The position numbers and the translations under genes are program-made. 32,000 nucleotides of DNA, from positions 1 to 32,000 of the forward strand of contig JAUSKK010000016.1 of assembly GCA_030649345.1 (NCBI GenBank). Reading direction: 5' to 3'. Positions 1,685 to 28,904 of this stretch are shown here, in pieces; the stretch's first letter is position 1, and each line of letters begins with the position of its first letter. The DNA comes from Candidatus Iainarchaeum sp. Its GTDB lineage: Archaea > Iainarchaeota > Iainarchaeia > Iainarchaeales > 0-14-0-20-34-12. The notes beneath the pieces are model-generated. The model was not told where the DNA came from and ran no database searches. It saw nothing but the letters and a program-made list of their open reading frames with translations.

Positions 1685-2698
1685 TCATTTTTCTATTTCT
1701 TTTGTTGCTTTTTCAAATGTTTCTCGTTTAATAGCTCCCAACTTATAGGCTTTTTCTAAAGCTTTAGTAGTTTCTTGGCTATTGGACTTAGTTTCTTGAC
1801 TTTCTGTTGTTTGTCTGTATATTTTAGGATTCTTTTCTTTAAAAACAAATGTATTGTGCTTTTTAAAAGCCTGGCTTGGCGGTTTTCCAAATCCTGTAAA
1901 TTTAAATACAACTAAAAGTGTTAGGGCTAATGCAATTAATCCAATCCATATTCCGTTTCCCCAAAAATTTCCTTTTTCTGAAATAGTTGCATTTCCGACA
2001 CTGGATTCACTTAACGCAGACGTTGTTTCGCTTTCCAATGCCGATAATCGAATATATATTTGATTGCTTAATTCTGTAAATCCCCCGTAATTTCTAGAAA
2101 TTACTTGCCGTCGCAGTTCTCGGAGTTGTTTTTGAATTTCTACCAGCCCGGATTCCATTAAATTTAAGCCTTGAATTTCTCCGCGTACAGTTCTTACTTC
2201 TTGAATTAATTTTTCAATTCGTAAAGTCTGCGAACTTAATTCATCCAAAGTTTTGTAGTAATAATTAATTCCGTCTTCTACATATAGATTGCACGATGCA
2301 GGCAAGTCTGCATTCGGCAAGCTAAGCACTGCATTAATCTGATACGTGCCCAATTCAGCGTCTTTTTCTAGAACTATTTTTTTTTCAATGGTTTGTTTTT
2401 CTTTAGATTTTAATTCAAATGGAATAGATTCGCGTTGAATTCTGTCTGTTTTTGGGTTAACTACTGAAAACAAAATCTGTCCTTTTAACAAAACTGTTTC
2501 TGATTTATTTTCCAAGTAAATTTGGGCAGAAACAGTATTTCCCGGCAAGCTTACATTTTGCAGGCATTCCAAACGAAATTCTAATGGTTCAATCTGGTCT
2601 ATTTCATTGGCTGTTGTTTGAGCATAGGCTGACCCAATCAATATAATCAGCATAATTATGAAAAGTACTTTATTTGGTTTCATAATTTCCCTTTCCAA
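1685..2698 (-). CDS. Membrane-anchored surface protein: signal peptide, Ig-like (CARDB-type) domain, coiled-coil stalk, TM helix, cytoplasmic tail ending in a SHOCT-like motif
   Basis: 337-aa ORF. The signal peptide is 'MKPNKVLFIIMLIILIGSAYA', so the real start is probably Met6 at ~2683. The beta-rich region includes 'GTYQINAVLSL', followed by a coiled coil. The TM helix is 'GIWIGLIALALTLLVVFKF'. The C-terminal 'LEKAYKLGAIKRETFEKATKEI' resembles the SHOCT consensus. Confidence 0.75.
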   Translation of the reverse strand: MEREIMKPNKVLFIIMLIILIGSAYAQTTANEIDQIEPLEFRLECLQNVSLPGNTVSAQIYLENKSETVLLKGQILFSVVNPKTDRIQRESIPFELKSKEKQTIEKKIVLEKDAELGTYQINAVLSLPNADLPASCNLYVEDGINYYYKTLDELSSQTLRIEKLIQEVRTVRGEIQGLNLMESGLVEIQKQLRELRRQVISRNYGGFTELSNQIYIRLSALESETTSALSESSVGNATISEKGNFWGNGIWIGLIALALTLLVVFKFTGFGKPPSQAFKKHNTFVFKEKNPKIYRQTTESQETKSNSQETTKALEKAYKLGAIKRETFEKATKEIEK

Positions 2699-4121
2699 AT
2701 TTAGTTTGATGCACTAGCAATAATGCTCCAATAATTATAATAGTTATTGTTCCTAAAATCCATGCTATTGGAAAGGATGAATCGCGATTCAAGAGTGTTC
2801 CATCCAATGCCTGTAAACCAACCAGTGCCGATGAAATTCGAGTAAACAATTCATCTGCTTTTTGATTAAAAGTTCCATCGGCTGCATATTGACTGGCCTG
2901 ACTTTTTAGCTGGCTTATTTGAAGCTGAATTTCCTGCATTTCTTGAGCCAGTAATGGATCTGCTGAATTGGTTGATTTTTGCAGTTCAACTAAGGCATTT
3001 AATTTTTGAAAATCTTCATTTAATAATTGATTTATTCGCTGATAATAAGTATCTGTTCCTTCTAGGAATATTTCGCATCTAGCTTTTTGTTCTTGTTCTC
3101 CAGTTTTTCCAGTAACTGTAATAATATATTTTCCCAATGCTTGTGTTTCTCCAAATTGTACTCGTTTTTCAAATTTTTGTGATTGTTTTGGTAAAATAGA
3201 AGAAATCCATTGTTCTTGTGTGCTTATATTTCCTTGAATATCTTGCACTATCCAGTCTACAATTATGTTGTTGGATGAATTCCCTAAATTACTTAAATAC
3301 ACTGTTCCATTCCAAGCTTCAGGTGATTGCAATGCACGTTTCCCGCAGTCTAAACTTACATCAAAATCAATGGTTCCATTTACATGAATGGCTTGACTGG
3401 CAGTGTAACTAAAATTTAAGTCCTGAAAAGTTGTAATTATAATTGTTGCCACATAATTTCCAGGAACTACAGGATTCCATTCTTGCGGAAACACTGCACT
3501 TAGTTTTTCTTGCGGATTAATACGTAAAACTAATTCTTGAGTGGAAACAATAACTCCGCGTAATTCAGTAGTTAAACTTACAGTGTAATCAATTAATTCA
3601 CGTTCATTGTTTTTAATTTGAATTTCAAATTTTGGTTTTTCGAAAACTTCAATAATTTCTTTTTCGACTGAAAATTCAATTGCTGGTTTTTTTTGAATTT
3701 GGATTTTTTTTAAAGGTTGTTTTCCAAAATAACTTAAACACTGAACAGCATTTTTGCATCCATTCGAACCATTCATAATAAAATTTTGGCATTTAGTTAA
3801 ATTTTGACTGCAGTACGTATCACATTCTTGATAATTTTTGCATTTTTCAGGTCCTTGATATGCAGGCAAACCAGCCGAAGAACCTCCTCCGCTTGAAATT
3901 CCTCCAGTTCCGCCAGTTGTAGTAGTTTGAGTTGTAGGCGTTGGCTGAACTTGTGTGCAAGTAATGCATTGATTGGAGCAAACATCCGGGCAAGTTCCAC
4001 AATTAGCTTCTGGACCGCAAACCATCCAGCTGGCAGTAACTGAAGATACTGCAGAGTACACGGAAATTGTTAGAAAGACCAGCAGACTTAGACTTAATAA
4101 AAACCAGATTTTTTTATGCAT
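2670..4121 (-). CDS. Secreted Cys-rich surface protein with two Ig-like (CARDB-type) domains, a coiled-coil stalk and a C-terminal TM anchor (SlaB-like architecture)
   Basis: 483-aa ORF with signal peptide 'MHKKIWFLLSLSLLVFLTISVYSA'. It has Cys-rich modules ('CGTCPDVCSNQCITC'), a T/G/S linker and beta-rich repeats ('PGNYVATIIITT', 'GKYIITVTG'). A coiled coil follows, then the C-terminal TM 'IAWILGTITIIIIGALLLV'. It is a paralog of the 1685-2698 product across the Ig/stalk junction. Confidence 0.8.
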   Translation of the reverse strand: MHKKIWFLLSLSLLVFLTISVYSAVSSVTASWMVCGPEANCGTCPDVCSNQCITCTQVQPTPTTQTTTTGGTGGISSGGGSSAGLPAYQGPEKCKNYQECDTYCSQNLTKCQNFIMNGSNGCKNAVQCLSYFGKQPLKKIQIQKKPAIEFSVEKEIIEVFEKPKFEIQIKNNERELIDYTVSLTTELRGVIVSTQELVLRINPQEKLSAVFPQEWNPVVPGNYVATIIITTFQDLNFSYTASQAIHVNGTIDFDVSLDCGKRALQSPEAWNGTVYLSNLGNSSNNIIVDWIVQDIQGNISTQEQWISSILPKQSQKFEKRVQFGETQALGKYIITVTGKTGEQEQKARCEIFLEGTDTYYQRINQLLNEDFQKLNALVELQKSTNSADPLLAQEMQEIQLQISQLKSQASQYAADGTFNQKADELFTRISSALVGLQALDGTLLNRDSSFPIAWILGTITIIIIGALLLVHQTKFGKGNYETK

Positions 4122-4138
4122 GATTAATTATACAAAGG

Positions 4139-5080
4139 TCATTCTTTTTCTTTAACTTGTAGGTTGAGTTGAATTTGGTTTCCAGATGGCCCAATTCCGC
4201 TGGCTGCATCAAAGTATAAATTTTTGTATCGAATCTGCCATTCTGCTTTATTTTCTACAGGAGGTAAGCCCATGTTAATTCCAATAGTATAATTTCCTGG
4301 GCGTGTATTTGGTTTTAGTTTTCCTTTAATAATTATTTTTTGAGCCCAGGATGGGTCAAATTTTGGAAATGTTGGGCCTAGTAAAATTACATTGGGTGTA
4401 ATGGTTAAATCAAAATTTTTTACTGCTTCTGCATTTGGAACCAGTTTTAATCCTTGCCATGTTTGTACATTCCAGCCAGTATGCAAGAATACTACTGCCG
4501 TGAATTCTTTTCTTCCATTTAAATATAATATATCCCATTGTTCTGCTGGATAAGTTCCGTATCCTGTAACTCCCCAATAATCTGCATTGGGTTTAGCCCA
4601 GTATTGTAAAGCTTGTTCTTTAAAATTCGGATAAAATTCTGGCTGTAAATAATATTCTTCTTCCAATTGTCCTATTCCGAAATATTGTCCATTGGCTAAT
4701 AAATATGCAATTTCACTAAAATCATCAGGCACTGCTGGCAAGTCTGCAAATATGTCTTGTTCGCTTTGAAGTCCAAAATAAGCTGGAGTGGTTTCTAAAG
4801 TTATATTCAAATTTTTGGATGCTTGTTCAAATAATTTGTATCCTTCTCGTTTAGGTTTAAAAGCTTCTTGAAAATAGGTTTGTCTAAGCAAAGGACTATT
4901 GCCTGTAAATGAGTTATTTTGTGTTTCAGTCAATGAAATATTTCCAGTTGGATTAGGCAAAAAATTGAATGAATTATTTAATACAAAAAATACGGCCGCA
5001 ATAATGGCTATTGCAAAAACTATTTTTAAAAAACTAAATTTGGATTTATTGGGCTGATTGACTGTTGTTTCATTATCCAT
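4139..5080 (-). CDS. N-terminally anchored extracytoplasmic protein of an unrecognised family (domain X), paralog of 10926-11801
   Basis: 313-aa ORF with N-terminal TM 'FLKIVFAIAIIAAVFFVL'. It shares motifs with the 291-aa ORF: 'YYLQPEFYPNF', 'FLHTGWNVQTWQGL', 'LLGPTFPKFDPSWAQK' and 'PGNYTIGINM'. Confidence 0.75.
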   Translation of the reverse strand: MDNETTVNQPNKSKFSFLKIVFAIAIIAAVFFVLNNSFNFLPNPTGNISLTETQNNSFTGNSPLLRQTYFQEAFKPKREGYKLFEQASKNLNITLETTPAYFGLQSEQDIFADLPAVPDDFSEIAYLLANGQYFGIGQLEEEYYLQPEFYPNFKEQALQYWAKPNADYWGVTGYGTYPAEQWDILYLNGRKEFTAVVFLHTGWNVQTWQGLKLVPNAEAVKNFDLTITPNVILLGPTFPKFDPSWAQKIIIKGKLKPNTRPGNYTIGINMGLPPVENKAEWQIRYKNLYFDAASGIGPSGNQIQLNLQVKEKE

Positions 5081-5156
5081 AGTTTAACCCCTTATTCACA
5101 AATTAATTTAATATAGGGAATAGTTATGCAAATAATTTATTAATTGGATGTTTTGT

Positions 5157-5864
5157 TTAATTCGATCCTACTTGGATTTGAATTGCATGACTTCCTTGTG
5201 GTACTGCTACTAAACTGGTTGGGGTATATCCCATTCCATTAAAGTCTCCTGAAAAACATAATTGGTTGGTATCATTAATTCCTAAAGAGGTTACCAGTCT
5301 TCCTGCAGTAGTTTCATTAGATTGATTGAATTGCCTGCATACTATTTTGGTTACAGCTGTTGTGGCATTGGCTACATTACAATCTTGTCTCCATCCACCC
5401 ATTCCATTAACGTCTCCTCCGCCTGTGGGTGCAGCTTCACCGCAGCCAGCTCCTGTTCCCATCCATACTTTTAATACGACATTAACATCTGTTCCATTTA
5501 AATCCACCATAAAATTTCCATCAATATTGGCTGCTATATTTCCATTGTTGGTAATTAAAACAGGTGCTAAAGTTGAGCTTTGGCATTTAGTTGCAGCTCC
5601 TCCACCTGAACTGGAATTGGGTCTGGCTTGGCTTCCGTTTCCGTCAGCATCTGAATCCATATTGGAATCAGTTTCCACAAAATAGAATGCACTGGTAGAA
5701 CAAGCTGCTCCATAGGTTACTGTGTGACTATAATTAGCTGGTACTACCCAAGTCATTGTGGTTATAGTCGTTGCTGCATAAACCAAAGGTATTATTGTTA
5801 AAAATAATAAAAATATCAGGACTGCTTTCAAATCTCCAGAATTGCGGTCTAAGTGGGTATTCAT
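5157..5864 (-). CDS. Secreted or anchored G/T/N/A-rich Cys-containing beta protein, homologous to the C-terminal domain of the giant protein
   Basis: 235-aa ORF with N-terminal hydrophobic segment 'AVLIFLLFLTIIPLVYA'. The motifs 'AFYFVETD', 'NIDGNFMVDLNG' and 'NQLCFSGDF' align with 'KVYFETTD', 'SDINFTLDLNA' and 'LNVWLWADF' at the giant protein's C-terminus. Confidence 0.7.
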   Translation of the reverse strand: MNTHLDRNSGDLKAVLIFLLFLTIIPLVYAATTITTMTWVVPANYSHTVTYGAACSTSAFYFVETDSNMDSDADGNGSQARPNSSSGGGAATKCQSSTLAPVLITNNGNIAANIDGNFMVDLNGTDVNVVLKVWMGTGAGCGEAAPTGGGDVNGMGGWRQDCNVANATTAVTKIVCRQFNQSNETTAGRLVTSLGINDTNQLCFSGDFNGMGYTPTSLVAVPQGSHAIQIQVGSN

Positions 5865-6013
5865 TTTTTCACGTTGCTTATTTAGTAATGTCTTTACAGT
5901 TTAAAATACTTTTGTTATTTTTTTGTTTTTTGGATTTTTATGTGTTTTTGGCTGGTTTAAATTTTAACCATTTTTTTAAAGAAATTCGTGTCTTGCCGGA
6001 ACTCATAGAACAG

Positions 6014-6021
6014 TTTAAATA
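6014..6021 (+). promoter_or_regulatory. Candidate archaeal TATA box for the giant-protein gene
   Basis: 'TTTAAATA' ends 30 nt upstream of the GTG start at 6051. That spacing fits a leaderless or very short-leader transcript. It lies in the divergent intergenic region. Confidence 0.35.
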
Positions 6022-6050
6022 AATAAATTGCTTTTGTTTATGGGGTTTCT

Positions 6051-9000
6051 GTGTTTTGGTTGCGTTTATTTTTTCTAGTTTGTCTTTTTCAGTTTTTTCT
6101 TTCCCCGGTCTTAGCGCAGACAGATTCGTTTTCTCAAACTGTTCCTTTAACTCAATACTTTGTTTTAGATTCAAATCAATCTATGCTGGCAATGCTTCCT
6201 GCAGTCAGCCAAGTAAGTCCATTGAATTCTGTTCAAGCAATTCAATTTCAAGTTCCTATTTTTGTTGATTCCAATACTCAATTTTCGAAAGCAGTATTTT
6301 CTTTTTCTGAACTGCCGTTAAATCAAAAAACACCCACTGCATTAATTTCTTTACTGCCGGAACAGCGTTCCAGTTTGTTTTTTTTAATTTTAGTGCTGGG
6401 ATTAATTATTATTGTACTTTTCATTAAACCAGGTTCCAAGAAAAAAAATTTGTTTGCGTTTTTTCTGATTTTTTGTTTTTTGTTTTCATTGAATCTTACA
6501 GCTCAAGAATCTGTTTCTGAATTAACTCTTCCATTGCTTAAAACAGACCCTGAACTTGCATCTGTTTCCAATTCAGATTGGAGTATTCTTTTGTCCAATA
6601 CTCAAACAACTAATTTTTCTTTTTCTTTTTCAAATACCATTCCATCGAATTCAGTTATTGAAAATTTAAATTTGCATTTTTCTGCTCGTGCAGAAATTCA
6701 ATCAGTCAATAATTCAGCTGAATCTGCTTCAAGTGAAATAGTTAATGCAGGTGAAAATTCAAATGAAATTGAAGATTTAACTGAAACCATTGTTGAAACT
6801 CCAAGTGATTCTTTAACATCCAGTGAAGAAATTGTGCCCAGCGAAGAAACCTTAGTTCCTGTTTCGGATTCAGTTAATGAACCTGCACTTCCTGCAGTTG
6901 AATCTGTAGATCCTGTTAGTGAACCTGTAGATTCTTCGAATGAACCATTAACTTCTTCCGATGCAAATTCTCCTGAAACTATTTTAACCTCTTCTTCTGT
7001 TTCTGAACTTCAATCCAATTCGAATTCCGTAATTTTTTTTGCAGATGTTGATTCAGAATTTATTTCCGAAAATTTATCTGCAGAAAATGTTCCTTTAGCT
7101 TTTTTATCCATTGATTTTTGGAATGGCTCTGCATGGGTTCCTGTTTTAGATTGCCAAGATTTGAATATTTTTTCAACCATCCAAGATACTGTATGCGATC
7201 TTTCTTCTGTTATTCCAGTTCTTTCTTCCGAGCCCATTGTCTTAGGTTTTCGGGTAACTCCTTTACAGGAAAATGTTACTCTTTTTTTAACCAACACTGC
7301 TTTAAAATCTCTAATTTCTTCTTCAAATTCAGGAACAGCTCAAATTACGGTATATTATAAAACAACCGAAGGACTTCAGTCTTTGCCGGATTGTGTAAAT
7401 CTTGATTTTTCTTTTAAAACTTTTTCTTGTGACTTTTCTTCTTTTTTTAAAAATTCTTCCGGCATTCAAAATTTAATTTTTGAAATCCATACTCAGCAAA
7501 CTTCTGGTTCAGTTCAAGCTGGTTTAAATTCAGCCCAGCTTGATTTTTCGTATTCTTCTTTAAACCCGAATGCAGTTCATCTTGCAACTTTACTTTCAGA
7601 CCGACAACCAGTGCTTGACTTTGATTCTGTTCTTATAACTGGTTCTGAGTTTACTTTGGATCAGAATGTTTTCAGTGTTTTTTCTATTGTAAATCCTGTT
7701 CTAAATTCTTTGCAAATCAAAAAATCTTCTTTGACTGCCGAACCTACTCAAATGTCCATTCAGTCTTTGCCTGTATCCATTCCTGCTCCAGAAGGCATAA
7801 AATGGCAGAATGTTTTTGCTGTCAATTTTGGAGATTCTAATTTTTCCGAAGCTGTTTTTCAAATTAAAGATTCAAATGCTTTAATTTATTTTTGTTCTGA
7901 ATTTAATTTTGAAAAAAATATATGTGCTTTAGACTGGATCAAACTTAACACTGGCAAGTCTGTGTTCATTCCTTCTCCAGGTGTTTTAGGATTCGGAATT
8001 CAGGATATTTCTTTTATTCATGGTTTTGTTTGCTTGAATTGCGATTCCAAGAATTCTTCAGCTAAAGATATTCAAGTTAATGTTAAAGTATTCAATGCCG
8101 GCAGTCAAACAGATGTAAATTTAACCAGTTTTTTTCCAGTTGCTTTGGAAGTAATTGATTCCAATCAAGGTTTGGTTTTAGATCATAATAGTGAATTCCG
8201 AAAAATTGTTTGGCAGAATCTTTCATTTGAAAATTCATTTACTCAAAGTTATGTTCTGCGTGTTTCACCTAAAAACTCAAAAAAAGCATTCTTTTTTTCC
8301 ATGCTTTCCAATTTGTCTTCGGATTATGTGCAAATGAATTTTTCGCTTTCTAGAAAAGAAAAACTTGTGCAAAAATTTGAAAAAAAATCAATGCATGAAA
8401 TCCGCAAAGATATCCAGAAAGAATTCAAAACCATTGTCAAAAAACATGCGTTTGAATCCGATGAAGCTGTATTGCTGCCGTTTAAAAAATCTGAATTAGA
8501 CACTGTTTTAAGTGCTCAAGACTTTTCAGAATTTACCAATTCGGAATCTACCCATTTTTCAGAAAAAAGAATTGGCTCCAAAATTGTCCGGGCCGGCTTT
8601 TTCGGAGACACTTTGCTTCAGCCGGAAATTGTGGTTTCAGATTCTGATCCCAATGAATTTATGCTTTTAGCCAAGCCAGAAACCAATGAATTTATTCCCG
8701 GAGAATACAAAGTATGGATTGCGGTTGAAGAAAATAATTCTGTTTCGTATGAAGAATATTCTTTTTCTTGGGGTTTAATTACTGTAAATTCATTTAAGCC
8801 TTTATATCATCCCAATGAAAAAGTAGAATTGTATTCAGTTGTTTTGGATTCAGCTGGTTTTCCTAGATCGGGAGCTCAAATTAAATTTACAGTTCAAACT
8901 CCTTCTTTGGTGTTGAATTTTTCTACAGTCGATGGAACGATTGTGGAAACTTCTGTGAAAGGAGTCTATAAAGCAGAATTTTTAGCAGCTGAAATTGGAA

Positions 9001-10892
9001 ATTATTTGGTTCAAGCTGAAACCAATATTGAAGGATCTCCCATTGTTTCGGAAAACAATTTTGGTGTCAGAGAATTTTTTGAATTTGATATTGTCCGCGA
9101 AATGCCTTTTACGATTGATCCCAGAAACGGGCCGTTTCATACCAAAATTACAATTACTCCCTTTATTGATAATTCAATTTCTTATCAAGTCAAAGAAGTT
9201 TTCTCTAAATCAATAACTCCTTCCAATACTTCTGCCAGTATTTCTTCTACAGATACTTTGCAGTATTTGGATTGGCCGAGTGTTTCTGGTCCGCAAACTT
9301 TTGAGTATGATTTTGATGCTCCTTTCTTTTGGCCGCGTTTGTTTGAATTTGGAAAAATTCAAATACAATATGATTCGAATAAAACTTTTACAGAAGAACG
9401 TGCTTTTGATTTAGCTATTGATCCTACTGTATCAACTACTTGGTATATTGTAGATACGACAGACACTCAACAAGGTGTAGACATTAATGAACCTAAACCT
9501 GACAGACATACTAATTTTGCAAGCAAAGGAACACCTGCTCCTTCTTTATTGGCTTTTGGTTTAGCTAAAGGAAATGCAGTAGCTTCTAATGGTGTAAGAA
9601 AAGTTACTGGAGCTACAGCGACTGGTGACTATAATGCTTTAGTGGTTACTTCTCCTCCTTTGCGTGGTCAATTTATTAGTGGAACTTGGACTATGGATAT
9701 CTGGGGGTTACAAAATAATGCTAGTGCTGATTTAACTCCGAATGCATATCTTCGGGTTTGGACAGCTGCCACGGATAGTGCAGGTGATGAAATTTGTGCC
9801 AAAACAGCTGATGGCGCTGAATGGGGTAATGCTTCATCTAATCGTACTTTAATGACTTGGACTTGTTCTGGCAATCCAGTAACCTTTGCGAATAAAGATA
9901 AACTTGTATTGGAAATTGTCAGTGCTGGTTTAAGCCCTGGTTCGTCTAGCTCGTATGCAGACATTAATTACGGTAATACTTCCAGTGATTCAAGGATAAC
10001 CAGTCCAGATACTTTACGTTTATATGCTGAATTAAAACAACCTGTTATTTCGATTCCTTCGGCTGACAACAATTCTGGAACTGTTACAGGCGTGAATATG
10101 CGTGTGCAGGCAACTGTTGGTTGTACCAGTGTTTATTATGGTGATTGTGGTGATGTCAATGCCAGAATTCAGTTTTGTCAAACTGAAGGTTGTACTAATT
10201 TTGCGGACATGAATTTTACAGACGGTGGTTTACGTATTGTGGCAGGAGATCAAATTGTATATGAGCAAGATTTGGTTTCGGGTGAAACTTCTTCTGCATT
10301 TGCTTGGGAAATTCAAGGCTTTACTGCAGCAACCTATGAATTGCGTTTGCGTACAGACGCTAATTTTACAGACACCAATACTTCTTCTGGAACAGATCGT
10401 ACAATTACAATTAGTGCTCCGGGTGGAGCAGACTTAACTTTTGCTTTAGCGTATCCTGCTTCAGGCTGCACGAACGGAAAAGGTCGTACTTCTGCTGGAA
10501 ATGGTGCTTGTGAAAAAGTTTATTTTGAAACCACTGATTTATCTGGAAATGCGGATGAAAATCAAGTAATTCCAGAGGGCGGTAATCCATTTTTTGTATA
10601 TGACAATCAAAGTACAAGCAGTTCAGATATTAATTTTACTTTAGACTTAAATGCTGCTTTGCCTTCCAGTTTATGGCTGAAAACTTCAACCATTTCTTCC
10701 GGTTATGCAGGTTCTTGCACCAGCAATCCAGACAACAATTGTGTTTCTATAACTACTGTGGCTCAAAATATTGGGAAAGCAATTTTTAGTACTGGTTCCC
10801 AAGATTTGAATGTATGGCTTTGGGCGGACTTTTTCCAGTCGAGTGTTCAAACCCAAGACCGAAATGCCACCAGTACTAGTGTGAGTTCGTAA
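6051..10892 (+). CDS. Giant (1613 aa) secreted multi-domain surface protein, adhesin- or S-layer-like
   Basis: Uninterrupted 4.8-kb ORF with a GTG start and signal peptide 'MFWLRLFFLVCLFQFFLSPVLA'. Two internal hydrophobic segments lie at about aa 106-152. An acidic S/E/P-rich linker spans about aa 216-330. Cys-pair modules and several Ig-like segments ('IQVNVKVFNAGSQTDVNLT', 'GVYKAEFLAAEIGNYLV') follow. The C-terminal third is rich in G, T, A and N. Confidence 0.85.
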   Translation: MFWLRLFFLVCLFQFFLSPVLAQTDSFSQTVPLTQYFVLDSNQSMLAMLPAVSQVSPLNSVQAIQFQVPIFVDSNTQFSKAVFSFSELPLNQKTPTALISLLPEQRSSLFFLILVLGLIIIVLFIKPGSKKKNLFAFFLIFCFLFSLNLTAQESVSELTLPLLKTDPELASVSNSDWSILLSNTQTTNFSFSFSNTIPSNSVIENLNLHFSARAEIQSVNNSAESASSEIVNAGENSNEIEDLTETIVETPSDSLTSSEEIVPSEETLVPVSDSVNEPALPAVESVDPVSEPVDSSNEPLTSSDANSPETILTSSSVSELQSNSNSVIFFADVDSEFISENLSAENVPLAFLSIDFWNGSAWVPVLDCQDLNIFSTIQDTVCDLSSVIPVLSSEPIVLGFRVTPLQENVTLFLTNTALKSLISSSNSGTAQITVYYKTTEGLQSLPDCVNLDFSFKTFSCDFSSFFKNSSGIQNLIFEIHTQQTSGSVQAGLNSAQLDFSYSSLNPNAVHLATLLSDRQPVLDFDSVLITGSEFTLDQNVFSVFSIVNPVLNSLQIKKSSLTAEPTQMSIQSLPVSIPAPEGIKWQNVFAVNFGDSNFSEAVFQIKDSNALIYFCSEFNFEKNICALDWIKLNTGKSVFIPSPGVLGFGIQDISFIHGFVCLNCDSKNSSAKDIQVNVKVFNAGSQTDVNLTSFFPVALEVIDSNQGLVLDHNSEFRKIVWQNLSFENSFTQSYVLRVSPKNSKKAFFFSMLSNLSSDYVQMNFSLSRKEKLVQKFEKKSMHEIRKDIQKEFKTIVKKHAFESDEAVLLPFKKSELDTVLSAQDFSEFTNSESTHFSEKRIGSKIVRAGFFGDTLLQPEIVVSDSDPNEFMLLAKPETNEFIPGEYKVWIAVEENNSVSYEEYSFSWGLITVNSFKPLYHPNEKVELYSVVLDSAGFPRSGAQIKFTVQTPSLVLNFSTVDGTIVETSVKGVYKAEFLAAEIGNYLVQAETNIEGSPIVSENNFGVREFFEFDIVREMPFTIDPRNGPFHTKITITPFIDNSISYQVKEVFSKSITPSNTSASISSTDTLQYLDWPSVSGPQTFEYDFDAPFFWPRLFEFGKIQIQYDSNKTFTEERAFDLAIDPTVSTTWYIVDTTDTQQGVDINEPKPDRHTNFASKGTPAPSLLAFGLAKGNAVASNGVRKVTGATATGDYNALVVTSPPLRGQFISGTWTMDIWGLQNNASADLTPNAYLRVWTAATDSAGDEICAKTADGAEWGNASSNRTLMTWTCSGNPVTFANKDKLVLEIVSAGLSPGSSSSYADINYGNTSSDSRITSPDTLRLYAELKQPVISIPSADNNSGTVTGVNMRVQATVGCTSVYYGDCGDVNARIQFCQTEGCTNFADMNFTDGGLRIVAGDQIVYEQDLVSGETSSAFAWEIQGFTAATYELRLRTDANFTDTNTSSGTDRTITISAPGGADLTFALAYPASGCTNGKGRTSAGNGACEKVYFETTDLSGNADENQVIPEGGNPFFVYDNQSTSSSDINFTLDLNAALPSSLWLKTSTISSGYAGSCTSNPDNNCVSITTVAQNIGKAIFSTGSQDLNVWLWADFFQSSVQTQDRNATSTSVSS

Positions 10893-10925
10893 CAAAAAAT
10901 AGTTTGTAACAAAAAATGCATTGCC

Positions 10926-11801
10926 ATGAATCGAAAGAAATTTTTTTTAGGACTAATTTTTTTTGAATTTTTTTTGCTTTTAATTTACTTTTTTTCCTTT
11001 TCTTCCATAAGTCCTGCGCTTTTACCGCCTGCTCCAATTTCTATTTCTTCCCATTCTTTTTTTTCTAAATCTTTAATCACACAGCGATTGGATTACAATT
11101 CAGGTTATTTTGTTTCATCTTCCATGAATCAATTTTTTCCTATCTCCAATGCTTTCAAAAATCTTCCAATTCCACCTAAAGATTTTTTTAAACACACACA
11201 ATTGTTTTCCAAAGAATATGGTTCAGCAGTAAATCTTCTGCCCAAATACTATCGTCAACCTGAATTTTTGCCTAATTTTTATGAAAACTTTTTTGTCCAT
11301 TATCAAACTTTTAATCCTACCCATTTTTTCATTCAAGGCCTAGGCGTTCTTCCATTTGAACAATTTATTTCATTAAAAAAAGGAGAACGCAAACGCATTG
11401 CTTTATTTTGGCACACTGCTTTTGGAGTGCAGTCCTTTCAAGGAATTCGTATTCAAACACAATTTCCAGAACAAAGTTTTACTCTTCAAAATTATTTATA
11501 TAATTCTCAAGACTCAGCAAAAGTTTCAAATTATTTCTCGATTGCTTTAACTCCATCCGAATTTTTACTGGGTCCAGCTTATCCTTTTTTTGACCCTGCT
11601 TGGAACCAAAAAGTAATTGCTGAAATTGAAGCCTTGCCGGATTCTTTGCCTGGCAATTATGTTGTGGCTTTTGAAATTACTTCTCCTTCCTTAGAAAATG
11701 AATCTATTTGGTCTAATCAAAAAACTAATTATGTTTCCGGCAGTGATTTAGCCCAATCTAATTTTCCGAGAGCCAGATTGAATATCCGCATAGAACCTTA
11801 A
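10926..11801 (+). CDS. N-terminally anchored extracytoplasmic protein (domain X), paralog of 4139-5080
   Basis: 291-aa ORF with N-terminal TM 'FFLGLIFFEFFLLLIYFFSF'. Shared motifs are 'YYRQPEFLPNF', 'FWHTAFGVQSFQGI', 'LLGPAYPFFDPAWNQK' and 'PGNYVVAFEI'. Confidence 0.75.
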   Translation: MNRKKFFLGLIFFEFFLLLIYFFSFSSISPALLPPAPISISSHSFFSKSLITQRLDYNSGYFVSSSMNQFFPISNAFKNLPIPPKDFFKHTQLFSKEYGSAVNLLPKYYRQPEFLPNFYENFFVHYQTFNPTHFFIQGLGVLPFEQFISLKKGERKRIALFWHTAFGVQSFQGIRIQTQFPEQSFTLQNYLYNSQDSAKVSNYFSIALTPSEFLLGPAYPFFDPAWNQKVIAEIEALPDSLPGNYVVAFEITSPSLENESIWSNQKTNYVSGSDLAQSNFPRARLNIRIEP

Positions 11802-12288: not shown

Positions 12289-13932
12289 ATGCCAGCTACA
12301 TTTGAATCTTTTACAGAACAAGAAAAACAAGTCTTGAAACCATACTTTACTAATTTAGATCAATCTATTTTTGTTTTGCAAAATTTGCCGGAAGTCGTCA
12401 AAGGAGCTTTATTTTCCAGATATTCTAGGTCTTCTAAATTATTGCGCAGACTGTTACTCGAAGAATTTTTGAATGTAAAAGAACTCGGCTTAACCGAACT
12501 GTTAAATCATCAAGCCAATACACAAGATCCTTTGGTGGCTGCCAAAAAAGCCGAAGAATTTTACGACCGAGTCTTGGTTGGCTTTGGAGATGACTCAGTT
12601 GCAGAATTGGCTGGCTGTCATATTGCCTGTGAACAAGTTTCCATGATTGCCACCAAAGCCTTAGAAGATTCACGGATTGGCTTGTGTCCTTTAGAGAAAA
12701 GTACACGGTATGTTTATTTTGATCAAAAAATAAATGGCCACTATCAGTATTTGTTAGAAAAAGATTTAATGAATTCAGAATTTGCAGACTTATACACTGA
12801 AACTTGTGATTCTTTGTTTGATGTGTATGCCAAAATTTTAGAACCTATGAAAAAATATTTTACAGACTTATATCCTAAAGATGCTGAAACTTCTGATCGT
12901 GCTTACACTTCTGCTGTGAAAGCCAAAACCTGTGATACTATTCGTGGTTTATTGCCAGCCAGTACTTTAACCAATTTAGGCTTGTATGGAAATGGCCGAG
13001 CGTTTGAATATTTATTGCAAAAAATGTATGCCAATCCTTTAAGTGAAATGCAGTCTTTGGCTTCAGAAATGCATTCCGAATTACGAAAGTATATTCCTTC
13101 GTTTGTCAAACGTGCCAATGATTCTTTAGGCCAAACCACCATTGATTTCTGGCAGCAATCTTGGGCTGTTCAAAAAAAATATGCCGAAAAACAATTCAAT
13201 CAAGTTCCTATGGAGTCAGTTCCTCAAGTTGAATTAATTGACTTTGATTCCAAAGCGGAAGAAAAAGTGTTGACTGCTTTATTGTATTCCAAAACTGGTT
13301 TGTCCTTAAAACAAATTCGAAAACATATTCAAAAACTTTCAGTTTCTGAAAAACAGCAAATTTTTCAAGAATATTTAAATCATCGAAAAAACCGCAGACA
13401 CAAGCCCGGAAGAGGATTTGAAACTGCGCAATATACTTTTGATATTCACGCCAACTTTAATGCTTTCCGTGACCTTCAAAGGCATAGAATGTTAACTCAA
13501 GAACGACAACTTCTTTCATGCAATTTAGGGCATATTACTCCCAAAGAATTATTCGATGCAGGCTTTGCTGAAGAGTATCAAAGTGTAATGAGTCAAGCCA
13601 AGGAATCGTTTGATGTTATTGCAAAAAAAATGCCAGCTCAAGCTCAATATATTGTTCCTATGGGGTATCATGTTCGCTGGTATATTTCTTTGAATGCCAG
13701 AGAAATGTATCATTTATGTGAACTGCGTTCAGTCCAGCAAGGTCATCCAGATTATCGCTATGTTGCGCAGCAAATGTTTTTGGAAGCTCAAAAAGTGCAT
13801 CCTTTGTTAATGAATGCCATGAAATTTGTAGACATGAAACAATATTCCTTTGAACGAATTGAAGCCGAAAAATATACCGATAAACGAATGGATGAAATTA
13901 AACAAAAGCATGGAATTGAATGGAAAGAATAG
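12289..13932 (+). CDS. thyX: Flavin-dependent thymidylate synthase ThyX, long (double-length) form
   Basis: 547-aa ORF with the ThyX signature region 'FRDLQRHRMLTQERQ' in the C-terminal half. The N-terminal half contains 'GALFSRYSRSS'. Canonical ThyX is roughly half this length. Confidence 0.85.
   Translation: MPATFESFTEQEKQVLKPYFTNLDQSIFVLQNLPEVVKGALFSRYSRSSKLLRRLLLEEFLNVKELGLTELLNHQANTQDPLVAAKKAEEFYDRVLVGFGDDSVAELAGCHIACEQVSMIATKALEDSRIGLCPLEKSTRYVYFDQKINGHYQYLLEKDLMNSEFADLYTETCDSLFDVYAKILEPMKKYFTDLYPKDAETSDRAYTSAVKAKTCDTIRGLLPASTLTNLGLYGNGRAFEYLLQKMYANPLSEMQSLASEMHSELRKYIPSFVKRANDSLGQTTIDFWQQSWAVQKKYAEKQFNQVPMESVPQVELIDFDSKAEEKVLTALLYSKTGLSLKQIRKHIQKLSVSEKQQIFQEYLNHRKNRRHKPGRGFETAQYTFDIHANFNAFRDLQRHRMLTQERQLLSCNLGHITPKELFDAGFAEEYQSVMSQAKESFDVIAKKMPAQAQYIVPMGYHVRWYISLNAREMYHLCELRSVQQGHPDYRYVAQQMFLEAQKVHPLLMNAMKFVDMKQYSFERIEAEKYTDKRMDEIKQKHGIEWKE
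13895..13928. repeat. Left copy of a 34-bp perfect direct repeat (thyX 3' end)
   Basis: 'AAATTAAACAAAAGCATGGAATTGAATGGAAAGA' is identical to 14477-14510. It encodes the ThyX C-terminus ..IKQKHGIEWKE. Confidence 0.95.
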
Positions 13933-13983
13933 GTTACTTTCAATATGTGGGCGCAGATTTATTAAAAAGAATCAAACACTGTT

Positions 13984-14382
13984 ATGTGTATGATGAAATT
14001 TCTTTCTGTCGAAAAAATAATTGAATTAAACCTACTGGCGCTTAATTTAATTGCTGTTAAAAAAGCAGATCAAGCTAAAGTTTTAAGCAAAAGTAAGATT
14101 GCTGAAATCGTTGAAAGTTGCAAAACCTTAAATGGAGATGTCTATGATCATGCTGTTTTTTTACTTAAGCAAATTGTACAAAAGCATGCGTTTGCAAGTG
14201 GAAATCGCCGTACTGCTTTTTTGGTTATGAAATATTTTTTGGTTTTAAATAAACAAAAGCTTAGAATTTCAGACAATCCTGAAAATGCACGAGTCATGCA
14301 GGGAATTCGGGAAAATTATTATTCAGACAATGAATTGAAGGAGTGGATTAAAAATGGAAAAATTAGAAACTTCCAGCGATAA
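13984..14382 (+). CDS. doc: Fic/Doc (death-on-curing) family toxin
   Basis: 132-aa ORF with the Fic/Doc core motif 'HAFASGNRRTAF' (HxFx[D/A/S]GN[K/R]R). Its size and the position of the motif are typical of Doc-like toxins. Confidence 0.8.
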   Translation: MCMMKFLSVEKIIELNLLALNLIAVKKADQAKVLSKSKIAEIVESCKTLNGDVYDHAVFLLKQIVQKHAFASGNRRTAFLVMKYFLVLNKQKLRISDNPENARVMQGIRENYYSDNELKEWIKNGKIRNFQR

Positions 14383-15249: not shown

Positions 15250-16284
15250 TTGATTCATATGCTTTCTCCTATTCCGTTTTCTTTTGAATCCAAATTTGAC
15301 TCCATTTTAAAGACCCATTTAGTTTCAAAAATTTCAGAGTCTCTTTCAGCATATGAAAATCCTTCTTTTTTAGCAGGTTTTATTTGGCCGAAAGATTTTT
15401 CAAAAGAACAAATTTTGGATTTAAAAGCAAATTTTCAGCAAAATTTAACCAGCGAACTTTCAAAAGCACTGCATTCAATTCCAGACTTTCAAAATCCAGT
15501 AACTTCCATTTACATTGATTTTACTTTAAATCAAATTACGTTTCACATCCAACCTGTCTACATTTTTGGACATTATAAAAAATTTTCTCGTACAATTACA
15601 CAGACCTTTCCGTATTGTTTTCATTGCAAAGGACAATCCTGTCGTTTGTGCAATTTTACCGGCCGAGAACCCTGTGAAAGCGTGCAAGAAATCATTGCAG
15701 AACCAGCTCAAAACTTATTTCAATCGAATGATAATAAATTTCATGGAGCCGGAAGAGAAGACCAAGATGTCCGCATGCTGGGCAATGGCAGAGCTTTTGT
15801 TTTAGAATTAATCGATCCCCAAAAACGTTCCATGGATTTATCTAAATTGGAACAAGAAATAAATTCGAAAAATCAAAACAAAGTTGAAGTTATTCGCTTG
15901 CAGTATTGTTTGAAAGCAAAAATTGCTGAAATCAAAGAAGCCAAATTCAGCAAAATTTATTTAGCGGAAGTTACAGGCGTAAAACCTTTTGTAAAAGAAA
16001 AATTGCTGAGTTTAAAAAATCAAACTTTTGAATTAAACCAAGCTACACCGCAAAGAGTACAGTATCGTAGAGCTGAATTGATTCGCAAAAAAAGAATTAA
16101 AGTTTTAGACATTGTGCCTAAAACAGACTGTGTATTTGAAATCAAACTGGAAGCTGAAGCTGGAGCGTATATTAAAGAATTTATTTCCTCAGATCAAAAT
16201 AGAACCAAACCCAGTTTAGCTGAATTATTAAACAATGTATGCGACTGTACTGCATTGGATGTTCTAGAAATTATCGAAAATTAG
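15250..16284 (+). CDS. pus10: tRNA pseudouridine(54/55) synthase Pus10
   Basis: 344-aa ORF with zinc knuckles 'CFHCKGQSCRLCNFTG' and the catalytic region 'GAGREDQDVRMLGNGRAFVLEL', both typical of Pus10 (archaea and eukaryotes). The track start is a TTG; the ATG at 15259 is an alternative start. Confidence 0.85.
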   Translation: MIHMLSPIPFSFESKFDSILKTHLVSKISESLSAYENPSFLAGFIWPKDFSKEQILDLKANFQQNLTSELSKALHSIPDFQNPVTSIYIDFTLNQITFHIQPVYIFGHYKKFSRTITQTFPYCFHCKGQSCRLCNFTGREPCESVQEIIAEPAQNLFQSNDNKFHGAGREDQDVRMLGNGRAFVLELIDPQKRSMDLSKLEQEINSKNQNKVEVIRLQYCLKAKIAEIKEAKFSKIYLAEVTGVKPFVKEKLLSLKNQTFELNQATPQRVQYRRAELIRKKRIKVLDIVPKTDCVFEIKLEAEAGAYIKEFISSDQNRTKPSLAELLNNVCDCTALDVLEIIEN

Positions 16285-17348
16285 ATTTTTCTTTGCACAC
16301 TATATTCTGCCAAAGCCTTCAATTTTTGTTTGGCTTTACTTTCTTTTAATTCTTTATCCACTTTCTTCCAGCTTCCCAGTACAATTTCTTCCGCTTTTCC
16401 TTTAGCATACTCAATGGCATCTGTTTTTTGAATCAAGTCAATGCCTCTTTTAATTTCATTCGGAAAACGTGTATGTGAATTCAATATTTCAATTAATTCT
16501 TTTCGTTCTTTTTCATTTAATTTTTTTAAAGCCCTTAAAACCAGCAAAGTTCGTTTGCCTTCCGTGATATCTTCTCCGATTGTTTTTCCCCATTCTCCGC
16601 TTTCAGGAACTAAATTTAAGATATCATCCTGTATCTGAAATCCCACGCCTATACTTTGAGCAAATTCTCCTAAAGCATTAATTTGTTTTTTGGTTCCATT
16701 ACCTAAAATTCCCCCAATCATAGCACTCATTCTTGCAAGCACTCCAGTTTTACACAAACACATTTGCAAGTAATGCTCTTCGCTTAAATTTGTCTTTTTT
16801 CCTTTATGCCAATGAATGTCCATGGCTTGGCCTAAGCTTACGCGGAGCATTTCTTCTACAAATACATTGTATATTTGTACTTGTTGTTTTTCGCTTAATT
16901 TTTTTAAATTCCGATACACTGGAATCATAGGCAAAAAATACAAAGTATTCGAATCATTAATGGCTGTATCCATTCCAAACAATTTATGCAATGCAGGTTT
17001 TCCTCTTCTTACCTCTGAACCATCTTCAATGTCATCGGCAACCAGAGTTCCATTGTGCACCATTTCCGGAATAGGTGTAAACGGCAAAGCTTTTTTTTCA
17101 GTTCCACCCACCGCTGTACAGCACCAAATCATTAAAGCTGGCCGCCATCTTTTTCCGCCGCGATTTAATAAATCCCAAATCGGTTTGCTGACTTCTTCAG
17201 TAATGGTTTCCGAGTGATATTTGTAAACAGGTTTCCCTAAAGCAGTATTCAACCAAGCATTCGAAATTTTTTTAGGCAAAATTTTTTGCATTTCTTGATC
17301 TATTTTTGGTTTGAGTTTTTTCAATTCGTGTTTAATATCTACACTCAT
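16281..17348 (-). CDS. idsA: Polyprenyl (geranylgeranyl) diphosphate synthase, type III GGPPS-like, copy 1
   Basis: 355-aa ORF. The first Asp-rich motif 'LVADDIEDGSEVRRGKPA' and the second 'GFQIQDDILNL' resemble eukaryote/archaeal GGPS1-type enzymes ('DDIEDxSxLRRG', 'FQIxDD'). Confidence 0.88.
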   Translation of the reverse strand: MSVDIKHELKKLKPKIDQEMQKILPKKISNAWLNTALGKPVYKYHSETITEEVSKPIWDLLNRGGKRWRPALMIWCCTAVGGTEKKALPFTPIPEMVHNGTLVADDIEDGSEVRRGKPALHKLFGMDTAINDSNTLYFLPMIPVYRNLKKLSEKQQVQIYNVFVEEMLRVSLGQAMDIHWHKGKKTNLSEEHYLQMCLCKTGVLARMSAMIGGILGNGTKKQINALGEFAQSIGVGFQIQDDILNLVPESGEWGKTIGEDITEGKRTLLVLRALKKLNEKERKELIEILNSHTRFPNEIKRGIDLIQKTDAIEYAKGKAEEIVLGSWKKVDKELKESKAKQKLKALAEYSVQRKI

Positions 17349-17405
17349 AAAAAGTATACGTATTCTCTGAACTTTTTATACTTGTGCTTTCTACAAAATA
17401 TTAAC

Positions 17406-17535
17406 TGTTATCCAATGCAATAGGTAGAAATCAATAATTCTTTTTGTTTGTTCAATACCTTGTCCAAGGTATTGAATGTTATCCAATGCAATAGGTAGAA
17501 ATCAATAATTCTTTTTGTTTGTTCAATACCTTGTC
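17406..17535. repeat. Two perfect 59-nt direct repeat copies (17406-17464 and 17477-17535, period 71 nt) between the GGPPS paralogs
   Basis: 'TGTTATCCAATGCAATAGGTAGAAATCAATAATTCTTTTTGTTTGTTCAATACCTTGTC' occurs twice without a mismatch. The second copy abuts the stop codon of the upstream paralog. Confidence 0.95.
17451..17476. repeat. Perfect 11-bp inverted repeat (hairpin) at the repeat junction
   Basis: 'TTCAATACCTT-GTCC-AAGGTATTGAA'. The left arm belongs to repeat copy 1 and the right arm is the 12-nt spacer. Confidence 0.9.
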
Positions 17536-27902: not shown

Positions 27903-27912
27903 AATGTATCCT

Positions 27913-28791: not shown

Positions 28792-28904
28792 TTAAAACTC
28801 CTCCAAGAGTTTTAAAAATTTCAAAATCCCTGATTTTGAATTCATTTAAAATTCCCCTGAACTTTAAAATCGTTTAAATTTCTCAAATTTAAAATCATTT
28901 AAAA
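28788..28904. repeat. Degenerate ~53-nt tandem repeat (about 2 units plus a partial third) filling the ATPase-TadB spacer
   Basis: 'TCATTTAAAA' occurs at 28788, 28842 and 28895 (spacings 54 and 53 nt), and the interiors of the units are similar. In minus sense each unit reads GG-rich element ... TTTTAAATGA. Confidence 0.6.

Follow-up and report, generated by a model that had tools for sequence, protein, structure and literature searches.

We analyzed a 32,000-nt stretch of a Candidatus Iainarchaeum sp. contig (JAUSKK010000016.1; here, the window), in which two gene pairs diverge from an AT-rich intergenic region of 186 bp (positions 5865 to 6050); direct reading of this region locates TATA-like TTTAAA boxes ahead of each of the two genes. 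On the minus strand, a gene for a small secreted module protein of 235 aa (5157 to 5864) is followed by the gene for its cognate membrane-anchored partner of 313 aa (X313; 4139 to 5080). On the plus strand, a gene for a giant secreted protein of 1613 aa (6051 to 10892), whose N-terminal payload varies and whose C-terminal module (aa 1459 to 1613; 10425 to 10889) is invariant, is followed by the gene for X291, a 291-aa paralog of X313 and the cognate partner of the giant (10926 to 11801). The giant and X291 share one reading frame and are parted by a single TAA. Past X313, the minus strand encodes, as judged by translation, a stalk-like membrane protein of 483 aa (2670 to 4121), a 337-aa paralog of it with a cytoplasmic tail (1685 to 2698), and a charged, coiled-coil-looking protein of 101 aa without a signal peptide (1373 to 1678). 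The last of these is possibly the final gene of the operon; ORFs of ~100 aa occupy the matching position in two other loci (L004 and L005), the correspondence being one of position only. Rfam and tRNA scans of the window returned no matches.

The 235-aa protein carries a Sec-type signal peptide that, judged by eye, is probably cut after VYA. In an alignment of 34 homologs, the mature N terminus, TTMTWVVP, is highly conserved: straight after the signal peptide, T36, M37, and T38 each reach at least 90% conservation, and W39 does not vary. The same alignment reveals a DxDxDGN motif and six invariant cysteines. The stored gene call for this protein begins at M37 and spans 199 aa, losing the signal peptide that is retained in the homologs. 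AlphaFold2 models were built as single chains for this protein and for X313, and the small protein was confidently predicted to be all beta (pLDDT 86.4, pTM 0.78). When this model was compared to the PDB with Foldseek, 7 of the top 12 matches were donor-strand fiber subunits, namely, TLP-1b, TLP-1a, the Pyrobaculum bundling pilus, SafA, cannulae, the TasA fiber, and the Saci_0406 thread; the matches are individually nonsignificant (best E value of 0.014, TM score of about 0.3). The assembly of TLP-1 has been described (PMC11494351). The protein itself matched no Pfam family at an E value of ≤1, and searches with the 34 family members up to an E value of 10 identified no relevant family, with no WxL and no TasA (PF12389) match. 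Two other readings of this protein and its relatives were discarded. A capsid-like nature was unsupported, as Foldseek comparison to viral models returned nothing at an E value of ≤0.1, and relatives of ~400 aa, considered as possible fusions to X, instead carry a ~200-aa insertion inside the module, for which the local Pfam copy contained no match.

The giant gives a weak MG2/Ig-like signal near aa 916 to 992, and weak MG2 and Big_1 matches are all that Pfam detects in it. Its homologs, of 939 to 2598 aa, have the tail in common, while their N-terminal parts are not shared. A search of 1.84 billion proteins with the giant-tail module yielded 123 representatives at an E value of ≤1e-3. The module is consistently terminal, ending within 15 aa of the C terminus in 126 of 131 proteins whose lengths range from 81 to 3752 aa. 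Some genomes encode several giants, and both length and payload vary widely. The module of the giant lacks the TTMTWVVP segment that begins the mature 235-aa protein; when upstream regions were compared, giants had at this position no more than the final strand of upstream domains that differ among them. Invariant cysteines number four in the giant tails versus six in the small family. The small protein and the giant both lack a membrane anchor, and one module homolog (P0111) bears a C-terminal transmembrane (TM) helix after the module.

The original prediction held that the 235-aa protein aligns with the C terminus of the giant. Pairwise BLASTP between the two was not significant (E value of 0.63), and a profile of the 34 small-protein homologs did not match the tail of the giant. 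An hhalign comparison that used only 21 close giant tails was too shallow to be informative (probability, 4.5%; P = 0.009). With 112 representatives of the giant C-terminal domain, however, hhalign aligned 130 columns with a probability of 96.7% and an E value of 3.4e-10, and the alignment contains all three of the motif pairings that had been proposed. After removal of every representative with any signal to the 235-aa profile, the probability was 94% and the E value was 1e-7. Bridging proteins, P0172, P0198, P0192, and P0225 among them, match both profiles over collinear regions. It is hardly conceivable that the similarity is an artefact of the Gly/Thr/Asn-rich composition of secreted proteins, as the empty BLASTP and one-way profile searches might suggest, since one reversed and 20 column-shuffled controls, which preserve composition, gave E values of ≥0.037; the E value obtained with the cleaned alignment, the bridging proteins, and the occurrence of X after both domain types likewise speak against it. 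On this alignment evidence, the small protein and the C-terminal ~155 aa of the giant are the same, homologous module.

The relationship between the two X proteins is detectable directly. BLASTP aligned X313 and X291 with 31% identity over 191 columns (E value of 1e-29), the alignment includes every motif that had been named as shared, and the two are genuine paralogs. They are the only X copies in the 1.3-Mb genome. The AlphaFold2 model of X313 is confident (pLDDT 88, pTM 0.76) and predicts a TM helix (aa 17 to 38), a disordered linker (aa 40 to 60), a helical domain (aa 63 to 162), and a beta-sandwich (aa 174 to 310). The helical domain is conserved and includes an invariant Pro-Glu pair (P147 and E148) within a QPEF motif. 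Foldseek comparison of X313 to the PDB identified MSP/VAP domains (1.7e-5) and the pilus chaperones FaeE (2.2e-4) and Caf1M (5.5e-4), together with accessory domains of glycosidases and proteases and numerous further Ig-like domains. The modeled sandwich thus appears to resemble MSP domains and PapD-like pilus chaperones, the chaperone resemblance being soft because Ig-like sandwiches match many unrelated proteins. Pfam searches with all four proteins of the two pairs, and with 30 X-family members up to an E value of 10, found no relevant family, PapD, DUF916, and DUF3324 included, and profile searches of PDB sequences gave only chance-level matches.

We then asked how consistently the two families are paired, using 60 X ORFs from 40 loci in about 33 related DPANN genomes. 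A module gene lies immediately upstream on the same strand of 53 X ORFs and immediately downstream of 3 more, so that the partners are adjacent in 56 of the 60 cases, and the order of the pair is also kept in a more divergent lineage (L046). Across 151 genomes sampled for co-occurrence, three families of this system are present or absent together: 32 genomes have all three and 115 have none. In the X tree, proteins encoded next to giant tails group in a single clade (22 of 23; support, 99/91), with X291 inside it, and a second clade (support, 100/100) unites those whose neighbors are large or insert-bearing proteins of the small type. The tree shows that X subfamilies track the subtype of the partner, each X copy staying with its own partner. 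Together with the C-terminal position of the module, these data bear out the proposal that the conserved unit consists of the shared C-terminal domain and domain X. The mirror-image layout around a divergent promoter, which had also been proposed, turned out to be incidental: 8 loci are arranged in tandem in the same direction, 5 (including that in the window) are divergent, and 1 is convergent. The giant had been viewed as an N-terminally expanded version of the small protein. The same domain does sit at its C terminus, but a short-to-expanded direction is not established, because each domain subtype is represented among short as well as long proteins.

The description of the locus as a two-gene module also needs to be extended. 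While the pair is conserved, the small-protein module really comprises three genes, the third encoding the stalk-like protein: homologs of the 483-aa protein, of 460 to 780 aa, are found downstream of long-type X in 21 of 24 loci. The 483-aa protein has a signal peptide, a Cys-rich stretch, Ig-like domains, a coiled coil, and a C-terminal TM helix. BLASTP relates its 337-aa neighbor both to it (5e-5) and to L5_652 (1.5e-4), and the neighbor has a weak MG2 match (1.1e-4) that lies below the Pfam cutoff. The module, X, and the stalk constitute three protein families that lack annotation and are inherited as a set, and the pairs in the window are two ancient copies of a gene pair that lacks database annotation.

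We propose that the locus encodes a cell-surface assembly of cognate pairs in which X would serve as a chaperone or anchor, the small protein as a fiber subunit, and the giant as an adhesin, a reading to which we assign a probability of roughly 0.45. Each pair would supply a secreted beta-sandwich module and, after it, a single-pass membrane protein X, with the N terminus of X predicted to lie inside the cell and its helical domain and MSP/PapD-like Ig sandwich outside. X would engage the module of its upstream-encoded partner, most likely through beta-strand complementation, and may keep this module at the membrane, acting as a chaperone or assembly platform; the original prediction had likewise suggested a chaperone, assembly factor, or receptor, any of which X could be. 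The small protein would then polymerize by donor-strand exchange into a thin fiber, for which its strictly conserved amphipathic N-terminal strand, absent from the giant module, is a candidate donor. The giant would cap or decorate this fiber as an adhesin, presenting its variable payload and using the module as its attachment end, and the stalk protein, whose gene follows the small-protein pair, may form the membrane base. Such an assembly would likely serve to attach this small-genome archaeon to hosts or surfaces.

Several points count against this model. In known chaperone systems, to our knowledge, a single chaperone attends to every subunit; here, there is a separate X for each partner, which a stable one-to-one anchor fits at least as well as a chaperone. 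The three cases in which X precedes its partner also count against the model. Finally, the archaeal donor-strand filaments described so far are presented as needing no chaperone (PMC12518558; PMC9245690).

It is conceivable that these proteins form a static docking pair and do not polymerize at all. X would then be the membrane anchor of a secreted partner, with the giant acting as a coat protein or adhesin and the small protein as a payload-free cap or regulator on a second anchor, much as SlaB holds SlaA in the S-layers of Sulfolobales or as cohesin binds dockerin. We consider this a serious possibility, albeit one that falls short of an even chance. One-to-one gene pairing, the tracking of partner type by X subfamilies, and the presence of coiled-coil and TM stalk-like proteins in the same operon would all be expected of it, as would the absence of a membrane anchor from the small protein and the giant, with P0111 having a TM helix instead. 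The S-layer comparison can be made more specific. In Sulfolobales, SlaA is a very large outer protein and SlaB is a membrane-anchored stalk composed of beta domains, a coiled coil, and a C-terminal TM helix, a description that the 483-aa and 337-aa proteins fit when their architecture is inspected by eye. However, the giants vary threefold in length as well as in payload and can be present in several copies, which suits adhesins better than lattice proteins, and X and the small protein have no S-layer counterpart. Static docking also offers no role for a free-standing 200-aa module conserved as strictly as that of the giant, leaves the conserved N-terminal strand of the small protein unaccounted for, and does not anticipate that the best structural neighbors of the small protein are fiber subunits.

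X could instead be a maturation factor, enzyme- or isomerase-like, that acts on the module, for example, on its six cysteines or in glycosylation, and then releases it. The invariant cysteines of both module types and the conserved helical domain of X with its P147-E148 pair are compatible with such an activity, yet the invariant X residues look noncatalytic (one is acidic and the rest are Pro, Gly, Trp, and Tyr, with no Cys, His, or Ser), neither Pfam nor PDB sequence searches point to an enzyme family, and the Foldseek matches of X are binding sandwiches, not catalytic domains; we regard this explanation as improbable. A polymorphic toxin with its immunity gene, suggested superficially by the order of a giant secreted protein and then a small gene, is very hard to credit, since the pattern is reversed (conservation lies in the C-terminal domain and variation in the N-terminal region), X spans the membrane and exposes a domain outside the cell, unlike a cytoplasmic immunity protein, the domain also occurs as a free-standing secreted protein with its own X, and Pfam identifies no toxin family.

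The fiber-and-adhesin model finds its closest analogy in the Gram-positive WxL pilus, which the locus appears to parallel without homology. In Enterococcus faecalis (elrABCDE) and in Csc-type clusters of Lactobacillales, this system, reported only in Bacillota, combines a chaperone anchored in the membrane with a pilin and with an adhesin whose module is C-terminal (bioRxiv 10.64898/2026.10.17.759780). Similarly, here a membrane-anchored, pilus-chaperone-like Ig-fold protein is encoded beside a secreted module protein of ~200 to 250 aa, large adhesin-like proteins combine a variable N-terminal payload with the shared module as their most C-terminal domain, typically two or more loci occur per genome, and an N-terminal strand is present in the small subunit and absent from the putative adhesin. 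WxL chaperone genes are expected within 10 kb of the pilin gene, and the adjacency of X and module genes falls well inside this distance, a parallel of architecture only. The two systems differ in several respects. They have no sequence relationship, the WxL, DUF916, and DUF3324 families being unmatched here; the helix of X is N-terminal (aa 17 to 38), whereas the ElrE anchor is C-terminal; each partner has its own X paralog in place of one shared chaperone; and a coiled-coil and TM stalk protein is found instead of a sortase/LPxTG anchor. The host here is an archaeon. WxL subunits polymerize by donor-strand exchange that the chaperone primes; here, such polymerization would be hinted at indirectly by the conserved N-terminal strand and the weak fold neighbors.

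Chaperone-usher pili (PapD, Caf1M, and FaeE, with FimH-type tip adhesins) offer a more distant comparison. The X sandwich matches FaeE and Caf1M, although its MSP matches are stronger, the adhesins likewise consist of a payload and a pilin-like module, and the SafA pilin is a weak match of the small protein. Archaea of this kind have no outer membrane, and no usher family was listed in Pfam scans of the 20 flanking ORFs of the window. Moreover, X has one sandwich, a helical domain, and a membrane anchor, in contrast to the two periplasmic Ig domains of these chaperones. In TasA/TapA of Bacillus subtilis and AbpA/AbpB of Pyrobaculum calidifontis, an accessory beta-sandwich protein has been proposed to anchor or nucleate the fiber (PMC9245690, PMC9674648, PMC10151520). 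There too, a secreted beta-rich subunit is encoded beside a beta-sandwich accessory protein, and the TasA fiber (8aur; E value of 0.16) and AbpA (7ueg; 0.054) are among the top structural neighbors of the small protein, both weakly (TM score of about 0.3). However, TapA and AbpB, unlike X, are secreted with signal peptides and are absent from the top 50 PDB matches of X, the small family lacks a TasA-family match, and no giant adhesin with the subunit fold has been described for those systems.

In its strongest form, our model would make this the first chaperone-assisted donor-strand-exchange fiber in Archaea: a pilus specific to DPANN, in which the subunit and the giant adhesins for host attachment have one beta-sandwich module in common, each is primed by its own membrane-anchored MSP/PapD-like chaperone, and the system evolved independently of the bacterial chaperone-usher and WxL systems. 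We think this specific version unlikely to hold in full. If X were a membrane-bound strand-exchange chaperone, archaea would possess this assembly logic in a version that has no sequence relationship to either the chaperone-usher or the WxL system.

The cells of DPANN archaea are very small, and for many of them a life in attachment to other microbes is assumed. The locus gives the module, X, and stalk families an architecture that can be tested. If the chaperone reading is true, the variable payloads of the giants would constitute a catalogue of candidate host-binding domains. Even if X is an anchor, a C-terminal module followed by an X gene provides a search rule for the surface proteins of these organisms.

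The minus strand carries a 235-aa secreted protein (the small protein; 5157-5864) followed by the domain X protein X313 (4139-5080), and the plus strand carries a 1,613-aa giant (6051-10892) followed by a second domain X protein, X291 (10926-11801); an ORF check found this layout as originally predicted. The genome has no X copies other than X313 and X291, and these two are related (E of 1e-29, 31% identity over 191 columns), with all the motifs named in the original prediction inside the alignment. The proposed similarity between the small protein and the last ~150 aa of the giant (the tail) failed simple tests: BLASTP was not significant (E of 0.63), a profile of 34 small-protein homologs did not match the tail, and hhalign against 21 close giant tails gave a 4.5% probability (P of 0.009). 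The reverse profile, built from giant tails, gave weak but collinear matches to the small family, the best being a single sequence at 3.4e-5. A search of the tail profile against 1.84 billion representative proteins recovered 123 proteins at E ≤ 1e-3, several of which (P0172, P0198, P0192, P0225, and P0230) matched both profiles over overlapping collinear regions; for P0172, the values were 8.8e-23 with the tail profile and 8.9e-8 with the small-family profile. With a 112-sequence tail alignment, hhalign aligned the mature small family over 130 columns at 96.7% probability and an E of 3.4e-10 (98% in global mode), reproducing the proposed pairings of AFYFVET with KVYFETT, NIDGNFMVDLN with DINFTLDLNA, and NQLCFSGDF with LNVWLWADF. 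Removal of every representative showing small-family signal left 94% and an E of 1e-7, and the controls (1 reversed and 20 column-shuffled alignments) reached at best an E of 0.037, so the similarity is not compositional. The strength of the match, its survival after removal of the bridging sequences, and the clean controls show that the second half of the observation, like the first, is real and that the small protein and the giant have a module in common.

The original prediction took this C-terminal module plus domain X to be the conserved unit, and both gene adjacency and the X phylogeny described below support it. Small and X genes adjoin in three MAGs, according to NCBI locus tags, and two contigs fetched around giant homologs contain the entire gene set, L004 on one strand in the order giant, X', small, X, 650-aa protein, 102-aa protein, and L005 in a mirrored layout like that of the window. 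When every ORF in 40 fetched regions was scanned with three profiles (X, small, and tail), a module gene, whole or as a C-terminal end, lay immediately upstream on the same strand for 53 of 60 X ORFs (32 of small type and 21 of giant-tail type). The remaining X ORFs had a module immediately downstream (three), no module (three), or a contig edge (one). X precedes the small protein at L032 (G043:C31, 1226-2886) and the giant at L011 and L023, and the X gene of L006 is two overlapping ORFs, probably through a frameshift. The small-type module also ends larger proteins (631, 923, and 1,036 aa), with X next in each case, and giant-tail-like or intermediate modules are also found as free-standing proteins of ~190 aa. 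Downstream of the free-standing module P0231 come an X homolog (3e-66), a 758-aa stalk-like protein, and a large protein running off the fetched stretch, the last residues of which resemble, by eye, a module start of the same subtype. The existence of free-standing and payload-bearing forms, each with X, indicates that the module is an attachment-type domain for which a payload is optional and which X accompanies.

Some small-protein relatives of ~400 aa (P0090, P0091, P0094, and P0095; L007, 6231-8767; L019 and L023) have a loop behind the DGN motif that is extended by a ~200-aa insertion, annotated as PF27237 in the source collection and without a match in the local Pfam copy. In one genus, these relatives are arrayed in tandem and have an X clade of their own, and a conserved ~180-aa ORF follows X.

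Among 151 genomes sampled from the phylum, X was located in 34, all listed as the same order, the small family in 34, and the tail family in 33. All three families co-occur in 32 genomes and none is present in 115; these genomes are related rather than independent, and we make no statistical claim. Positive genomes fall in seven families besides the window's own, from which one other genome was sampled, with none of the three gene families in it. MAGs labelled Micrarchaeota or Norongarragalinales also contain the tail module and X (P0186, 3,752 aa, and P0063), so the system is present in DPANN archaea outside the order to which the window belongs. The gene set forms a DPANN surface locus, conserved and with a patchy distribution.

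The window's genome is small (1.3 Mb), archaeal, and ~95% complete. Archaeal markers in the window include HMG-CoA reductase, Pus10, KaiC-type ATPases, an intein-bearing DHH phosphoesterase, and type IV pilus-like genes, and the sources of the closest homologs are named Candidatus Diapherotrites, Candidatus ainarchaeum, or "archaeon" MAGs. Judged by these names, the genome would belong to a DPANN archaeon of Diapherotrites/Iainarchaeota type. The DHH/DHHA1 phosphoesterase (990 aa; 19258-22230, minus strand) is split by an intein containing a LAGLIDADG homing endonuclease domain. An unusually long ThyX-family gene (547 aa; within 12289-14382), with two stretches matched and the best Thy1 stretch at aa 316-505, is directly followed by a short Fic/Doc gene, and two polyprenyl synthetase paralogs adjoin at 16281-18632 (minus strand). 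The type IV pilus-like set (26874-30437, minus strand), an ATPase and two T2SSF-type membrane proteins, is separate from the locus and points to a second, conventional filament system in the cell.

In a maximum-likelihood tree of 56 X proteins, 22 of the 23 that adjoin giant tails fell in one supported clade (99/91), those beside large or insert-bearing small-type proteins formed a separate clade (100/100), and those beside plain small proteins occupied the remaining clades. X has therefore been duplicated, each copy with its own partner; the pair duplication is old, and each X kept its own partner type. The original picture of a mirror-image duplication around a divergent promoter stands as to the duplication, but not as to the symmetry or the promoter, since the orientation of one pair relative to the other differs among loci: co-directional tandem in 8 cases, divergent in 5 (the window included), and convergent in 1. 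In one genus, the small-protein set is located apart from the giants. Nor are the pairs symmetric: a stalk-like protein follows the small-protein pair (21 of 24 cases) and not the giant pair. These proteins (460 to 780 aa) have a signal peptide, Ig-like domains, a coiled coil, and a C-terminal TM helix; the window holds two paralogs, of 483 aa (2670-4121, minus strand) and 337 aa.

The stored call for the small protein, 199 aa with a start at M37, removes a signal peptide present in every homolog; a call from the 235-aa start, or from a nearby one, is preferable. The Sec-type signal peptide of the small family is directly followed by TTMTWVVP; in an alignment of 34 homologs, T36, M37, and T38 are at least 90% conserved, W39 is invariant, and hydrophobic side chains alternate. 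Six cysteines are likewise invariant, as is a DxDxDGN stretch with the classic pattern of a calcium loop. The AlphaFold2 model (34 sequences; pLDDT of 86.4 and pTM of 0.78) predicts a signal helix and then an all-beta domain of about nine strands, with no strand assigned to the conserved mature N terminus. Foldseek comparison with the PDB returned nothing at an E of 1e-3 or better; 7 of the top 12 matches are donor-strand fibre subunits (TLP-1b, the best at 0.014, TLP-1a, the Pyrobaculum bundling pilus, SafA, cannulae, the TasA fibre, and the Saci_0406 thread), a resemblance of the predicted fold that we treat as a soft signal. For TLP-1, whose fibrils form through donor-strand exchange, monomer models likewise predict a disordered N-terminal strand (PMC11494351).

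The giant module starts at the next strand, DYSFxLxLP, without a TTMTWVVP-type extension, and in various giants this start is preceded by the last strand of differing upstream domains; the N-terminal extension of the small protein is thus absent from the giant. At its other end (6051-6500), the giant ORF encodes a signal peptide that ends in VLA|Q, followed by a TM helix near aa 105 to 125 and by KKK; another segment resembling a signal peptide then ends in LTA|Q at about aa 150, and an A8 run (6441-6448) coincides exactly with the junction. Giants homologous to this one carry a single signal peptide at the N terminus. The opening ~130 codons may encode a distinct small membrane protein fused in frame, possibly via an indel in the A run; alternatively, the real start may be internal. 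The giant and X291 share a reading frame, separated by one TAA and 11 codons (10890-10928), and no read-through is claimed.

A membrane anchor is present in X but in neither the small protein nor the giant. The X313 model (30 sequences; pLDDT of 88 and pTM of 0.76) comprises a TM helix (17-38), a disordered linker, a helical domain (63-162), and a beta-sandwich (174-310). The modelled sandwich matched MSP/VAP domains from 1.7e-5 and the pilus chaperones FaeE (2.2e-4) and Caf1M (5.5e-4). MSP domains and PapD-like chaperones share one classification. Accessory Ig-like domains from glycosidases and proteases were also matched, which leaves the predicted fold class of X clear but not its functional reading. 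Pfam searches gave no family for any of these proteins, PDB sequence searches gave no relative, and a limited literature search found no description of these DPANN families; the protein families of the locus are unannotated.

Among working systems, the nearest analogue is the WxL pilus that was reported for Enterococcus faecalis in October 2026; it combines a membrane-anchored chaperone with a fold like the chaperone-usher kind, a small pilin of WxL type, and adhesins in which the payload varies and the WxL module is C-terminal (bioRxiv 10.64898/2026.10.17.759780). The same study reports WxL loci in Bacillota only, at a median of two per genome (bioRxiv 10.64898/2026.10.17.759780). In chaperone-usher and WxL pili, the pilin has an N-terminal extension that the tip adhesin lacks, the same difference as between the small protein and the giant. 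The archaeal locus appears to follow the same logic, but no sequence-based membership test places it in the WxL system, and the membrane anchor of its accessory protein lies at the opposite end. TasA/TapA and AbpA/AbpB are further analogues (PMC9245690). Archaeal cannulae are described as chaperone-free (PMC12518558), and the authors found no candidate chaperone or usher in the Pyrobaculum bundling-pilus genome (PMC9245690).

We infer that X binds the module of its partner on the outer face of the membrane. The main rival to fibre assembly, a static anchor of S-layer or docking type, is favoured by the one-to-one pairing of X with its partner; the free-standing module, its conserved N-terminal strand, and the fold neighbours of the small protein speak instead for a fibre, and we consider the anchor a less probable, though serious, contender. 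Chaperone-type priming with donor-strand assembly is the most likely specific mechanism, at a probability of roughly 45%; in this model, the small protein would build the fibre and the giant would serve as a modular adhesin.
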